Positions 4,626 to 49,610 of a DNA stretch of 51,265 nucleotides are shown one piece after another. The translations under genes and the position numbers were made by a program. The stretch spans positions 1 to 51,265 of the forward strand of contig NW_021834206.1 of NCBI RefSeq assembly GCF_006345805.1. The letters run 5' to 3'. The notes beneath the pieces are model-generated. The model worked only from the letters and a program-made list of their open reading frames with translations. It made no database searches and had not been told where the DNA came from. Positions within the stretch are counted from its first letter, which is position 1, and every line of letters begins with the position of its first letter. Source of the stretch: Octopus sinensis. Taxonomy: Eukaryota.

Positions 4626-4946
4626 TATAAAACCATTATTCTATGCTAATTTATTTAATTTTGGCAAGCTAACTTTTCAGTTAAGATAAATATAATGTTT
4701 TAAAAGAAAGTTAAAGTGCCTCGTGATAACTGTAAACATGGTTTTGGGAGACGCTGTATATATATATATATATTATATGTGCAAGAAATTAAAATGGCAA
4801 GGGAATAAGATATTGTCATGAGCTTCATTAGCTTTCTGCTATTAAATGGAAAGTACCCATGACTCTATGCTTGTGCATCATCCTATAACTTCACCGGAGC
4901 TATCTTCCAAAAACTAAAGTAGAAATTATTTTGGAAAGCATTTATC

Positions 4947-10500: not shown

Positions 10501-11578
10501 ATTTCAACATTGAGGTAAATTAATTAATTAAGCAATTTCACAAGTATTCAGTATGCAAAGGGACCATTTAAGGCGAATTCAAATTATTACATTATATAAA
10601 AGGGCTTAGTAAAATAAATTACTTTGCCGCAACTGAACTCATTAGAAATAGCAGCTAAAAAAAATTTTTTAAACTATTTCTAATACTTAAAGAAAACCTC
10701 TCTCATATAGTGTTTGCTCAATTCAACTCACGAAAGTATGGGGGTAGAGACATTAAAAAATCAAATGCAAAGGTTATTTGAGAACGTACGTTTCAAGATT
10801 AGTCAAAATCGACACTTCTATCCACAGCTCAGAACTCCCTGGTTTGGATTTGAAAACACTGAAAGTAGGAGCATACCCTTTCGGCTTCTTATCGCTTCTG
10901 AAGATCTGCTCGAAACTAACAGTGCCAACAAACTCAAATATGCAAGCGAAGAATTTCTGCTCTCCCCTTTCCACCAGCGTGGGTTAAAATCAGTAAACAC
11001 TATGTTTTCGGTAAAATCCGAGGCATTAAATAGAGAGAGATGAATTATAATTTCAACAATTGAGGGTAAAATTAATTAATTATTAATCAATTTCACCAAG
11101 TATTCAGTATGCAAAGGACCATTTAAGGCGAATCAAATTATTACATTATATAAAAGGGCTTAGTAAAATAAATTACTTTGCCGCATACTGAACTCATTAG
11201 AAATAGCAGCTAAAAAAACTTTTTTAAAACTATTTCTAATACTAAAGAAACCTCTCTCATATAGTGTTTGCTCAATTCAACTCACGAAAGTATGGGGGTA
11301 GAGACATTAAAAAATCAAATGCAAAGGTTATTTGAGAACGTACGTTTCAAGATTAGTCAAACTCGACACTTCTATCCACAGCTCAGAACTCCCTGGTTTG
11401 GATTTGAAAACACTGAAAGTAGGAGCATACCCTTTCGGCTTCTTATCGCTTCTGAAGATCTGCTCGAAACTAACAGTGCCATCAAACTCAAATATGCAAG
11501 CGAAGAATTTCTGCTCTCCCCTTTCCACCAGCGTGGGTTAAAATCAGTAAACACTATGCTTTTTTCGGTAAAATCCGA
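10501..11578. repeat. Direct tandem repeat, ~550-bp unit, ~1.95 copies
   Basis: Units start at 10501 and ~11050; duplicated ORFs 10714/11268 are 554 bp apart. Confidence 0.95.
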
Positions 11579-12195
11579 ATATATGCATATACACACATAT
11601 GCACACACACATATGCACACACACATATATGCACACACACATATATGCACACACACATATGCACACACACATATACAAATATATACATACGTATACATAA
11701 ATACATACATACAGACACACGAAATGAGTAGATAGACAGCGGACATTTGATGAAGGGTTCTTTCTCTGTACTCTCAATTTTATTCTCGCTGTTTAATTAC
11801 TTCACTCTTTTCCCTCGTTTGTTTTCGTATTTCATGTTACTTGCACCATTGGTGACGTCCTGTAACCATTTATGTATGTATGTATGTATGTATGTATGTA
11901 TGTATGTATGTATGTATGTATGTATGTATATGTGTGTGTATGTATGTATGTATGCATGTATAACTTTATGCATATACATACATGCATATAATTATGTATA
12001 TATATATACATATATATATATATAACAATTTAATAAATAAAACATATGCATACATACATACATACATACATACATACGTACATATATGTACATACCTACA
12101 TTTATATGTATATATACATGCATATGTATATATATATACATATATATGTGAGTACAAGACACCACAAATAAACGTAGAACACAACGAGAAACGAA

Positions 12196-26872: not shown

Positions 26873-26975
26873 TAGCAGTATCGCCCGGCGTTGCTCGGGT
26901 TTGTAAGGGAAATAACTATAAAGCATTTTTAGAGAGTTATAGCCAAAAAATAGCAAAAAAATGGGAAAAAAATTA
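26873..26975 (-). mobile_element. Inverted copy of the Helitron 3' end
   Basis: Near-perfect reverse complement of 26741-26845. Confidence 0.85.
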
Positions 26976-33038: not shown

Positions 33039-34318
33039 TCAGGTCATCCCATAAGTTCTGTTCGAATTTTGAATAAAGATATCAAGTGACCAAATGTTAT
33101 ATTTAATTGAAATTTAATCATCAATATACTTTCCCTGATTATCTATGACTTCCTTCCATCTATATTCAAGCTTTTTTAATCCCATGTATGTAAAACTCTT
33201 TTGGTTTCAAAGCGAAGAACTCTGAAATATCAGTTTCGACCTCTTCCTTGCTTGCGAAAGTTACGTCCCCCAAATGACTCTCTATACTACGAAACAAATG
33301 GTAGTCTGATGGCGAAAGGTCGGAAGAATAAGGTGGATGAGGAATTTCTTCCCAACCAAGCTCTTCGATCTTCTGTGATATGATATTTGCAGCGTGGGGT
33401 CGCGCATTTTCCTGAGGAAACATCACTCCTTTTCGATTCACTAAAGCGGGTCTTTTTTCTTCAAAGCTTGGTTCAAACGCTCTAATTGCAGACAGTAGAC
33501 TTGAGCATTGATTGTTGCATTAGGTGGTAACAATTCAAAGTGAATTATTCCTTTGCAATCCCACCAGATAGAGAGAAGAACCCTTTCCTGATGAAGTTCC
33601 CTTCTCGGTTGTGGTTACGCTTTTCCCCTTTTCCCAAGCCACTGTTTACGACGTTTAACATTTCGATATAATATCCATGTTTCTTTACCAGTCACAAGTC
33701 TATCCAAAAAGGGTGAAATGTGTTCGCGAGAATGGAGAGAAGAGCAGATGTCAACTCGGGATTTGCGGTTGCTTTCGTACAATTCATGAGGCACCCATTT
33801 CCGAAGTTTAGGAACCTTTGCAAGTTGTTGAAGATGACGAAGAACAGTTGTATTGCCAATTCTTCAACTGATAATGCAGGATTTTTTTCAAGTAATGCCT
33901 CAAGGAGCTTATCTTCAAACTCAACGGAACGTCCTGTTCGATCTTCATTTTCAAGGCTGAAATCTCCACTTCTGAATTTTGCAAACCATCTTCTGCAAGT
34001 TCTTTCATTCAAGCATTGTTTCCCATAAGCTGAGTGTATGTTTCGAGTCGCTTCGGCTGCAGAGTTTCTGTTTTTTGTACTCATAAAGCATTATAAAGCA
34101 TTATGTGCCTCAAATGCTCTTTGGATACTTCCATGTTAGAAAGGGTTTTAATCAAAGAAAATTTAATTGTATTATTCTGTAAAATAATATTTAATTAGTT
34201 TAAATGTACACAAATGCATAAAAATAATTTGTAATTCCATTAGTCATTCTAAAATACTATTAAATTTCATTCAATTTTAAAAAAGTTAAAATCGGACAGA
34301 ACTTATGGGATGACCTGG
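33039..34318 (-). mobile_element. Near-full-length mariner transposon
   Basis: TIRs caggtcatcccataagttctg.tcga / tcggacagaacttatgggatgacctg; TA flanks; ~1.28 kb. Confidence 0.93.
33114..34134 (-). pseudogene. Mariner DD34D transposase, frameshifted
   Basis: MEVSKEHLRHIMLY; CRRWFAKFRSGDFSLE; ENARPH; PHPPYSSDLSPSDYHLFRS. Confidence 0.9.
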
Positions 34319-34478
34319 TATATATACATCTTTGTATGTAAGTCATTATTCAGTTTATTTCAAGATTTGTTGCCAATAGAGAAAGAACCGGTATCAAACC
34401 CAGATCCAAAACTCCTTCACTAGAATTTCAACATCAACAAGGTAGTTTTGTTTGTATTTACGTATGTATGTATGTATG

Positions 34479-34726
34479 TTTAAATGTACACAAATGCATA
34501 AAAATAATTTGAAATTCCATTAGTCATTCTAAAATACTATTAAATTTCATTCAATTTTAAAAAAGTTAAAATCGGACAGAACTTATGGGATGACCTGGTA
34601 TATATACATCTTTGTATGTAAGTCATTATTCAGTTTATTTCAAGATTTGTTGCCAATAGAGAAAGAACTCCTTCACTAGAATTTCAACATCAGCAAGGTA
34701 GTTTTCTTTGTATTTACGTATGTATG
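34479..34726. repeat. Tandem duplication of the mariner 5' end, TIR and flank
   Basis: Copy of ~34199-34470 at an offset of 280 bp, with a ~24-bp deletion. Confidence 0.9.
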
Positions 34727-35111
34727 TACGCAACCACTATGTTTTGGATTCACGTTTATGTATAAATATTCATAATCGAGTACTTCGTATATACACACTC
34801 AGTCATATGAGCATAAATAACCAGTCACACCGACACGCACTCACACACACATGTACACAGAAACACAAATATATTCACACGGGTTAGTTACAAGCACATA
34901 CTCGCACATAGATAAACACACATTAATTGTTGAAGGACAATTGACATGAATCTTCCTGTATAGGTAACATCGATTATAGAAAATAAGATACATAAATTTA
35001 TATACCCGGTCACAGGCATATACAAGACTACGTAGATTTATACATACGTACATAGATACATATATCCATATATAAAGAATATATATATATTTCATAGCAT
35101 TTTTTCCGATG

Positions 35112-35181
35112 GCCGGATAACTGAAGAGATGGCGGCGTGGATTTCCACCTCGGCATCCGAAACTCGGAGTTTTATCATGGC
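35112..35181 (+). ncRNA. Type I hammerhead ribozyme motif (family D)
   Basis: gccggataa-CTGAAGA(35121)-gatggcggcgtgg attt ccacctcggcatcc-GAAA(35159)-ctc g gag-TT-ttatcatggc. Confidence 0.75.
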
Positions 35182-35210
35182 TAGCGAATAATAGTCACAT
35201 CTTACATTAC

Positions 35211-35258
<48 letters not shown>

Positions 35259-35319
35259 AATATATAATATATATATTATATATATATCTGTAAATGTAAG
35301 ATGTGACTATTATTCGCTA

Positions 35320-35389
35320 GCCATGATAAAACTCCGAGTTTCGGATGCCGAGGTGGAAATCCACGCCGCCATCTCTTCAGTTATCCGGC
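35320..35389 (-). ncRNA. Type I hammerhead ribozyme motif, inverted copy
   Basis: Exact reverse complement of 35112-35181. Confidence 0.75.
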
Positions 35390-35409
35390 CATCGGAAAAA
35401 TGCTATGAT

Positions 35410-35474
<65 letters not shown>

Positions 35475-35608
35475 ATATATATATATATAACAATTTAGGA
35501 ATGGCCTTAACAGGCCATTCGTCCACTAGACAGAGCAGCCATAACTCCAACCGCCAAGTAATGTAATTCGGAAATAGGTGAAAAATTAAAAACGTTTACC
35601 CTAATTCA

Positions 35609-35706
35609 TCTTAGACGATGCATCGTTTCTGCGTTTTTAATGATAGACCAGCTTAATTAAATTAAATTAAGCTAATCTACCATAGGTCACGCTTCGTCAG
35701 TAAAGA
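35609..35706 (-). ncRNA. Type I hammerhead motif with long stem II (unit 1)
   Basis: tcttta-CTGACGA-agcgt..atggtagattagcttaat/attaagctggtctatcat..acgca-GAAA-cgatgcatcg-TC-taaga; GUC site. Confidence 0.7.
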
Positions 35707-36083
35707 AACCTTTGGTAGAGGCAAATATACACGAGGCTACTGCATCGAAGCCTCTGGAATATCTGTCTTAAAATTTTCGAAGACCAGCGCAATCGCGCCA
35801 ACCTTATCAGCCATAATATAAACTGCCGATTCAATCTCAGAATTAGTCAGAAAATAATCAATTAATCAATTAGGGTAGTAAAAAATTCGATAGAAATTTA
35901 TCACTACCAGCGGCCCAGTGGAAAAGAAAAATAGTCATGAGACTAAAATGTAAATATATAACAATTTAGGAATGGCCTTAACAGGCCATTCGTCCACTAG
36001 ACAGAGCAGCTATTACTCCAACCGCCAACCGAGTAATGTAATTCGGAAATAGGTGAAATATTAAAAACGTTTACCCTAATTCA

Positions 36084-36184
36084 TCTTTTAGGCGATGCAT
36101 CGTTTCTGCTGCGTTTAATGATAGACCAGCTTAATTAAATTAAATTAAGCTAATCTACCATAGGTCACGCTTCGTCAGTAAGAA
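36084..36184 (-). ncRNA. Hammerhead motif (unit 2), cleavage triplet reads GCC
   Basis: tctta-CTGACGA...GAAA-cgatgcatcg-CC-taaaa. Confidence 0.55.
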
Positions 36185-36574
36185 ACCTTTGGTAGAGGCA
36201 AATATACACGAGGCTACTGCATCGAAGCCTCTGGAATATCTGTCTTAAAATTTTCGAAGACCAGCGCAATCGCGCCAACCTTATCAGCAGCAAATATAAA
36301 CTGCCGATTCAATCTCAGAATTAGTCAGAAAATAATCAATTAATCAATTTAGGGTAGTAAAAAATTCGATAGAAATTTATCACTACCAGCGGCCCAGTGG
36401 AAAAGAAAAATAGTCATGAGACTAAAATGTAAATATATAACAATTTAGGAATGGCCTTAACAGGCCATTCGTCCACTAGACAGAGCAGCCATAACTCCAA
36501 CCGCCAAGTAATGTAATTCGGAAATAGGTGAAAGAATTAAAAACGTTTACCCTATACATATATATATATATATG

Positions 36575-47871: not shown

Positions 47872-49610
47872 TTATTTCATTAAGATTTGCCATAAACGCA
47901 TTATAAAGAGTAGCTTGTGGAATGAACACATACATTGATGAGGTGAATGATGAGAAGAAAAGAAAAAGAAAAAGGAATGATATAGATGGGAGAAGACAAA
48001 AAACGCATGCCGATTTTTGCTTCTCTAACAAATTCCTTTTTTTTCCAACAGTAAAAAATAAAACGAGGTATTGAACATCCCACTACAGTTTTTGCAATTA
48101 TTGGACTTAAAAGTCCATTACAAATAATAACATACAATAAAATATTCAATATATAATCAACACTAGTCCATTTACAAATGAGGCGCTGAGTCTCTTACAT
48201 ATTATAGCAGTGAGGCTTTTCAATCTCTTGTCAATTTTCCACCTCATCATCGCTTGTACCCATCTACTCCACCATCACCCATGCTTGATTAAAATCAAGG
48301 CGTGCTCCGAGTCGGCGTCACCCGGCCACGAGCGATATTCCTCTTTTAGCCCCTTCAGCCTTTGTAACATGCGCAACATTATGATCGCTACAGCTATCTG
48401 CGGAGGCCATTCGGGTTCCCGTATGAAGGCTAAAGGTACTCTCTTGTAGTGTTCTTTCAGCACCTTTTTCCATCTCTCCACCTCTACAAAAGAAGACCAG
48501 CAGTTCTTCCTCCTCCTCCAGATCCAAGGTAGTCAATTCTACCATTGGCGGTACAATTACCGCCAATAGCATCCCCCCACGCCGGTGGTACAAGCCCCAG
48601 CGACGAGGCTCCGGGACATTCCTGCACCATGTCTCCGACTGCCGGCATTATCCCGTTTCTCCTCCTCCTCCTCCTCTTCCCGACTGGGGGAGTGTGCGTC
48701 TCCTTCGTGACCGAGAGATTCGCCTCTTCCCTCACCCATTGTTGCTCACCTTCTTCCTTTTGCGGCTCTTCTTTGACGAGTCCTCCGTCTCCGCAGCCGC
48801 TTTCATTCCTTCAACCGCTCCAAGACTTTGCTTTGTCCTTGAGTATAGTTCTTTTTTATATGGCCTGGCTCCAAGCACCGGTGACATTTGGAGGGAGGCG
48901 TTCCTCGAGCATCACCGGATACCTAGACGGGTTAGTCTCAAAAATCTGGAAATACCAGACTTTCGGCTGACTAGGTCCATAGAGTCAAAACTGCTTGTGA
49001 CCCCTCCCAGTCAGCTGCAGGCAGAATATTTACGTTGAGGAGCTTGGTGCTACTACCACCCTAGTATCGCCTTTCCACTCGGGTCCAACTCCGGGTGGCC
49101 AGCCCGGATGGCCAAGCCCTCGTCAACTTCCCAGAATAAGTGGGAAGAATCAAAATTTCATTGCCCTCCAGGGGCTGGATCGCATTTTCACAAGCCACTT
49201 CTGGGGAGTCAAGCAGCACTTTGACCCCCGAGTGATAAAATTAATTGCTGGCTTAAATCCTGCCAGCTGCCTTTCGATTATGTATTTTTTGAAAACGGCA
49301 ATGGCGTCGAGGGTCCTAGGGTATGTCCTCAAAACCACCGTCTTACCTTCAAGTTTTTTTAGCCATCTTTTGGGTGGTGCAATTTCCCACTCTAGCAACT
49401 TTCCATTGTTCTTTGCCATGTTTTTTTTAAAGTCCAAAAGTACAGTTCTTAAAACAGAAAATAATTAAGGAAAAAGAAGGAAGCGAAAAAAGTCCAAAGA
49501 AATAGGAGGAAAAAAATTAACAGTTCAATAAAGAGTTTGTTTTTAAATAGAAGATATATGAAGAGAGAGAGCAACAGTTCAAAACAAAGCAAGGGCCACT
49601 TGGTACTCCA
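47872..49610 (-). mobile_element. Tx1/L1-like retrotransposon remnant (ORF1/gag-like with zinc knuckle)
   Basis: GC-richer island. PVMLEER.P / KCHRCLEPGHIKKNY at 48845-48886 is a CCHC knuckle with the last C>Y. N-terminal ORF 49150-49437, basic low-complexity tract, pyrimidine-rich 5' region, AATAAA at the 3' end. Confidence 0.6.

Follow-up and report, generated by a model that had tools for sequence, protein, structure and literature searches.

The window analysed here, that is the whole stretch of 51,265 nucleotides from contig NW_021834206.1 of Octopus sinensis, contains in the assembly a palindrome in which two 120-bp arms stand in mirror orientation around 75 nt of (TA)n. On the left, the sequence begins with a short (TA)5 tract at 35080-35089, which marks the 5' stub junction. 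The left arm (35090-35212, plus strand, palindromic from 35093) was assigned by family comparison to a Penelope-like element (PLE) of the Hydra clade, here called family A, of which it is the 3' end, untailed and truncated on the 5' side; it carries a type I hammerhead at 35110-35183 (plus strand) with a predicted cut after 35171. The central spacer (35213-35287) is self-complementary, consists of A and T letters only with few interruptions of the (TA)n, and is the putative point of fold-back. The right arm (35288-35408, minus strand, palindromic to 35407) mirrors the left one and, on comparison of the arms, has the same three rare changes; its hammerhead lies at 35318-35391 (minus strand), with the core starting at 35380 and, by mirror arithmetic, a predicted cut between 35330 and 35329. 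The structure is closed by a right (TA)n tract at 35409-35489, which was also the target of a neighbouring array.

The 108-nt core of the arms is 100% complementary, and over their full length there are no substitutions (0 of 117 columns) and two 1-nt homopolymer indels. The 5' breaks of both arms lie at most 2 nt apart; the left junction reads TTT instead of the single T expected if it mirrored the right one perfectly, a mismatch of 2 nt. The original prediction of an arm of about 120 bp and its near-perfect reverse complement around about 70 bp of (TA)n was borne out at the level of the assembly (35093-35212, 75 nt and 35288-35407), and the complete hammerhead core claimed for each arm was also found, all the named motifs being located and the sites being returned by a descriptor scan.

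Hammerhead motifs and predicted folding

In the left arm, stem I is formed by 35116-35120 and 35172-35176, CUGAAGA lies at 35121-35127 and GAAA at 35159-35162, followed by CUC-G-GAG at 35163-35169 and then by GUU before the predicted cut. Both arms have the type I core (CUGANGA, GAAA, NUH and three helices), and a type I descriptor scan over both strands of the whole window returned only the two sites of the palindrome, and none in the reversed control. Rfam gave no hammerhead match at the gathering threshold or at E<=5, and below threshold only hairpin-shaped miRNA models appeared; the long helix II may exceed the Rfam models. Stem I has an internal loop, helix II is long with one C that has to be bulged, and a near-palindromic 9-mer forms stem III, with a 1-nt loop (loop III 1-3 nt) and a self-duplex energy of -9.7 kcal/mol. 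The core is canonical and the helices are of the PLE dimer type. The PLE hammerheads described by Cervera and De la Pena (2014, PMC4209133) are alike in their long bulged helix II, their palindromic helix III and the low activity expected of the monomer. By this analogy, the design of stem III suggests a dimer-requiring ribozyme, which would probably need a same-strand partner to cut well, and the partner at this locus sits on the opposite strand. In family A the core is intact in 74 of the 98 arms that cover it, a sample picked by an exact 22-mer overlapping half of the core. Helix II of the family has subfamily variants at several positions, mostly pairing-preserving swaps of G-U/G-C or U-A/U-G.

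For the whole strand of 341 nt, the predicted folding energy is -267 kcal/mol (z = -42.8). In the nearest-neighbour model the active fold lies 8 kcal/mol above the single-arm ensemble, the energy gap between ribozyme fold and hairpin is about 100 kcal/mol, and the modelled probability of the ribozyme fold, in which tertiary contacts are omitted, falls from about 2e-6 for the single arm to about 5e-74 for the full palindrome.

Hammerheads on both strands have been described for Penelope-13_HM, where they result from an inverted 5' copy (PMC8557442); the published Hydra inversion is head-to-head, whereas the palindrome is tail-to-tail with two untailed arms. Dual hammerhead motifs 100-700 bp apart on opposite strands occur in Schistosoma (PMC4209133), and the passages of that paper on these motifs describe neither their relative orientation nor a microsatellite spacer; the motif of the palindrome keeps an extended stem I. 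The non-LTR retrozymes (PMC7229834; bioRxiv 10.64898/2026.07.22.740005) have a type I hammerhead in a short non-coding PLE-related repeat, a description that fits the neighbouring array. The arms differ from these in being inverted rather than tandem and in coming from an ORF-bearing element, and no monomer would be released from one strand. A non-LTR retrozyme identity of the arms was rejected, as it calls for at least two tandem, complete hammerheads on the same strand and the arms are on opposite strands.

The element family

Family A has 2,043 first-look candidate copies in the 2.7-Gb genome, and one 22-mer of the arm has 1,619 exact matches in the assembly, with none for the control. In three of four longer loci (L152, L154 and L155), an RT/GIY-YIG ORF ends about 790 bp upstream of the arm; the fourth (L153) is truncated, with the DKT motif (frame at 4925) present and the arm absent. 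The ORF fragments contain RT motifs including the RT thumb, a CxCX5C linker and a GIY-YIG-type segment (IIYEAT...KYVG), CCHH being absent, and the change from DKG to DKT, a Hydra-clade feature, was seen in L153. Around the catalytic E and N, CxxC is present and the second motif reads CxY in L128, L130 and L145, where the Hydra definition has CxH. Pfam and PDB searches with the ORF matched nothing relevant; a lead comes from the Atlas neighbours, in which PF26215 is found in 17-69% of members and PF01541 in 23%.

The Hydra clade is defined by DKT, a CxCX5C linker and GIY-YIG without CCHH (PMC8557442), and the presence of these features upstream of the arm places family A in this clade, as do its insertion at (TA)n and its 3' hammerhead. 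On the motifs of the ORF fragments, the arm was assigned to the 3' end of a Hydra-clade PLE that targets (TA)n. Of the Penelope link proposed in the original prediction, the Penelope-like origin was thus upheld by the Hydra-clade motifs, but the likeness to known inverted partial copies was not, those being head-to-head and the palindrome tail-to-tail and untailed. Hydra-1_Obim and related elements (Craig et al. 2021, PMC8557442) have the same DKT, CxCX5C, GIY-YIG without CCHH, (TA)n target and 3' hammerhead, and the (TA)n preference is listed for nearly all Hydra families. The stem III of the arm, actc-g-gagt, is listed there also for Hydra-2_aMil and Penelope-16_HM. Hydra-1_Obim is an octopus member of the clade; it has the ctgaagag core of the arm, and in a comparison by eye its RT closely resembles the ORF of L152 and L153 (PMC8557442). 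Its hammerhead helices, however, are unlike those of the arm, so that family A is a separate and new family of a known clade.

Some further features of the copies were noted. A different PLE ORF, with RT and a CCHH-type GIY-YIG, lies at 1163-2911 of L155, a few kb from the Hydra copy. A longer alternative tail, with about 90 nt more, was seen 3' of the long arm of L003 and in the left flank of L025; the family may have a third 3' end, or these copies may belong to a recombinant subfamily. Several 5' junctions (L004, L008, L012, L022 and L026-L028) start at one T-rich point about 15 nt before the hammerhead and are preceded by a G at a place where the element has no G; this G could, on our assumption, mark the capped 5' end of an RNA at what is presumably an initiator-like motif.

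Insertion pattern of the family

The survey of insertions covered all 87 sites behind the first 100 exact 22-mer matches on contig C1, plus L013; pairing was called by BLAST with a gap limit of 150 nt, the orientation classes overlap, and the sample is biased to copies with an intact 22-mer. Head-to-head pairs, with the 3' ends outward, were found at 52 of the 87 C1 sites, a tail-to-tail pair at 2 and direct pairs at 4, and 32 sites were partnerless; among the first 100 exact C1 matches the opposite-strand pairs were head-to-head in 11 of 11 cases. About 60% of the sampled family A sites are hairpins, and the family probably holds hundreds of them (several hundred head-to-head sites were estimated). 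A tailed (long) arm was joined to an untailed (short) one at 42 of 54 head-to-head junctions, and these long and short 3' ends match the published tail (PMC11167929). The partner arms of head-to-head pairs are 1.9-15% apart, with a median of 9% (from the 41 pairs that share 50 columns or more, the other 13, which are shorter, being left out), and the 5' breaks cluster at reference positions 245-280. As the sequences of these copies show, insertion is at (TA)n, and what remains is often a stub that is truncated on the 5' side and stops at the short untailed 3' end. The canonical PLE 5' inversion, which is head-to-head with one tailed arm, was rejected for the palindrome, whose tail-to-tail arms are both untailed.

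A junction query for other short/short tail-to-tail pairs returned copies that were either single or in head-to-head pairs and, at L072, a direct duplicate. The pattern search for tail-to-tail pairs covered short spacers of 2-14 nt and gave one site, with a non-TA spacer, against three control matches. No second unit of the form TA-arm-TA-mirror-TA was found in the 87 sites, in the junction query or with the 2-14-nt spacers, and a MITE or foldback DNA transposon was therefore rejected. The second tail-to-tail site of the 87, L201 (C1:151507700-151509500), contains at 857-1482 a double palindrome with short/short and then long/long ends and identical tails; it lacks a clean mirror and needs more than one rearrangement.

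Support for the palindrome in sequencing data

A short-read contig of run X1 (depth 6.84) matching 34700-35170 passes from the unique flank into the left arm by 78 nt and confirms the left junction and its orientation; run X1 may, however, come from the very sample that was assembled. Over 34700-35170 this contig has 8 letters unlike the assembly, none of them listed where X1 is the only record. A contig of low depth cannot cross high-copy sequence without private letters, so some of the 8 probably lie in the arm, and the short-read allele probably differs from the assembled left arm. In a second short-read comparison (34640-35116, likeness 96) the X1 bridging contig was not recovered. The right arm is bridged by no contig among those listed and has the assembly as its sole support, and the TA tracts are covered by no sequencing run. 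The assembled arm has no rare changes in its first 88 nt and three in its last 28, a pattern found in none of 59 family arms (post hoc test, p about 0.01-0.02). The assembled arms may thus have been partly polished toward the family majority, or X1 may hold another allele. The assembly has no second copy of the unique left flank, that is no allele or haplotig without the palindrome.

It is unlikely, though of some weight, that only one arm is real and that the mirror came from a double template switch at TA hairpins during sequencing or amplification, or that polishing made the two arms alike. Uncorrected long reads give just such a pattern of two homopolymer indels and no substitution, and the window starts at the first base of a contig that has a high number and is not one of chromosome scale, with a flank that has no second copy in the assembly; the unbridged right arm, the letters of the X1 contig and the skewed distribution of changes along the arm point the same way. 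Fold-back chimeric reads, however, run the mirror into unique flank, whereas here the mirror ends at TA tracts, and a comparable mirror with substitutions between its arms lies on a chromosome-scale contig (L118, below). The TA tracts of more than 31 nt on both sides would in any case break short-read contigs.

Origin of the mirror

The three changes from the family majority are common to both arms, and the 22-mer that holds two of them occurs only in these two arms in the 2.7-Gb assembly. This unique variant, the absence of substitutions and the matching 5' breaks argue that one arm was copied from the other. At L118 (C1, 68.27 Mb), a 225-bp mirror of the same tail-to-tail geometry stands around a TA/GA tract with 4 substitutions between its arms, and it includes the locus-specific insertion junction, so that the copy there postdates the insertion. 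We consider that the palindrome consists of two copies of a PLE 3' end and that the second probably came from the stub being copied back on itself at the TA tract. The element, as the family comparison shows, inserts at (TA)n and leaves a 5'-truncated, short-ended stub, and the stub at this locus would then have gained its three point changes near the 3' end. A growing strand with its end in the TA tract could, in the course of replication or repair, have folded back and copied the stub in reverse, and by rejoining the template at the neighbouring TA tract it would have given the order TA-arm-TA-mirror arm-TA. A read-through RNA of the product is modelled to form a duplex of about 120 bp that buries the ribozyme, and the hammerhead is most likely silent at this locus.

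In yeast, breaks are known to give rise to templated inversions by fold-back (PMC11724301). The fold-back inverted duplications reported (PMC11724301, PMC3907307 and PMC7467729) are alike in being local inverted copies primed by self-annealing; in yeast those described measure about 5-34 bp and in human they are large, whereas here the copies are about 120-225 bp and the putative primer is (TA)n. Tail-to-tail pairs centred on TA were also seen in an unrelated repeat family, at 26745-26972 of the window and at L205 (2 of 25 loci fetched), and these could also be independent insertions. TA-centred mirrors were found at 2 of 95 tracts in the window and at none of 417 tracts in 122 fetched loci, a survey that missed L118 on account of its mixed TA/GA spacer. 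In 400 kb placed arbitrarily, no TA-centred mirror of clearly non-repeat sequence was found, with 1 of 308 tracts giving an old, unclassified pair beside 20 other short-range inverted repeats; the sensitivity of this survey is incomplete, since the palindrome of the window itself escaped it. The literature searched, which left most subscription papers aside, gave no account of PLE mirrors standing tail-to-tail around (TA)n, and the tail-to-tail passage in PMC9977147 concerns Replitrons.

The mirror could instead have been made at insertion, if a dimeric Hydra RT-endonuclease nicked both strands about 75 bp apart and used the still-paired central TA to prime two outward cDNAs, each begun at the short start site of one and the same RNA. 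Purified PLE protein does cleave and extend both strands, with two RT start sites (PMC11167929), both arms finish at the short 3' end of the family, the clustering of 5' breaks at 245-280 agrees with such a process, and rare letters are common to the partner arms in some head-to-head pairs. We nevertheless regard this as distinctly improbable: the variant 22-mer is in no source or sister copy, the L118 mirror copies a junction that existed only after insertion, and paired insertions mostly combine a long end with a short one rather than two that are short. Two independent insertions of opposite orientation into one TA tract, made identical later by gene conversion in a cruciform, are very improbable. 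Several families do pile into the same TA tracts (family B and the repeat pair at 26745-26972), but this course would need the same type of 3' end, 5' breaks at most 2 nt apart and complete conversion, and head-to-head pairs should convert as easily, yet their arms differ by the median given above. The copying of the stub on itself remains our preferred reading. More broadly, the TA-centred tail-to-tail pairs might be a second, undescribed insertion geometry of the Hydra clade, in which the element's own nickase and RT prime outward or fold back at (TA)n and add near-perfect hairpins (about 2% of sites, tens per family) to the numerous head-to-head ones, which may feed the unusually high load of dsRNA and A-to-I editing in octopus; this is quite unlikely, and if the element itself did make the tail-to-tail form, this would constrain the still unsettled insertion mechanism of PLEs.

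The palindrome is a real-looking but ordinary transposon relic, the uncommon orientation of which is best explained by local mirror duplication. As transposon debris the single locus has little weight, and it serves as a worked case in which (TA)n-targeting PLEs and self-complementary microsatellites jointly make near-perfect palindromes. The hairpin share of sites in this one family would be a concrete and testable source of the high dsRNA content reported for octopus genomes.

Possible function of the hairpin

Read-through transcription would yield the sense hammerhead before its antisense, which begins about 135 nt further on. The hairpin, if transcribed, would suppress the ribozyme fold according to the energy model, and it could serve as a substrate of ADAR or Dicer. 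Cleavage at the palindrome is unlikely, since the ribozyme is probably dimer-dependent and its sole partner is on the other strand. The competition between ribozyme fold and dsRNA hairpin put forward in the original prediction is therefore supported thermodynamically, and it is not supported as a special regulatory competition, given the share of family sites that are hairpins, the lack of a host gene in the window and the dimer-type stem III. No RNA runs were among the sequencing runs listed for the locus. The genomic copies have no excess of A>G on the RNA strand (71 against 110 T>C, p = 0.50), that is no retro-copied ADAR footprint, a test that concerns genomic copies and not the editing of transcripts.

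It is extremely unlikely that the structure is a selected regulatory device, in which ribozyme folding competes with the long hairpin and so controls the transcript or feeds ADAR or siRNA pathways. Such a device would be in keeping with the great stability of the hairpin, with the uncommonly large number of near-perfect dsRNA loci and the heavy editing in octopus, and with the heavy editing of Penelope in a lizard (PMC5625713). Against it, no host gene was found in the window, the modelled energy gap would leave no switch, most of the sampled family sites are already hairpins, and the copies have no A>G excess. The hairpin is a by-product without sign of selection.

Neighbouring array and other features of the window

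Outside the palindrome, at 35490-36554 (minus strand), lies an unrelated neighbour, a non-coding tandem array of family B with a unit of about 475-479 bp in 2.3 copies. Family B has 1,906 first-look candidates genome-wide. Hammerhead-like cores are found in the array at 35700 and 36178, the second copy having a broken cleavage triplet; in the hammerhead, on the minus strand, helix III is palindromic and helix II is AT-rich and very long. The adjacency of palindrome and retrozyme-like array that had been pointed out is correct, with the array starting at about 35490, but no link beyond the common (TA)n target was found, the family and the hammerhead being different, and a functional link was rejected on these grounds. 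Across the genome, head-to-head inversions are seen in family B as well, and its 3' end has two alternative positions, separated by about 100 nt.

The second TA-centred palindrome of the window (26745-26972) has 100-nt arms that are 95% complementary around a 28-nt spacer. Its arms are the 3' end (hairpin and CTAG) of a family with 2,676 first-look candidates, which we take to be Helitron-like, and L205 has a similar pair. A GC-rich ORF-like stretch at 48200-49470 (minus strand), without a Pfam match, is possibly the 5' part of a LINE. Fragments of a Mariner/Mos1-type transposase lie at 33166-34090 (minus strand) and 20727-21131 (plus strand), PF17906 being matched at 33695-34090 and the rest read by eye. 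Young local direct duplications were seen at 34198-34728 (191 nt at 99% and 63 nt at 97%) and at 10711-11735, where an ORF-like block is repeated 554 bp apart.
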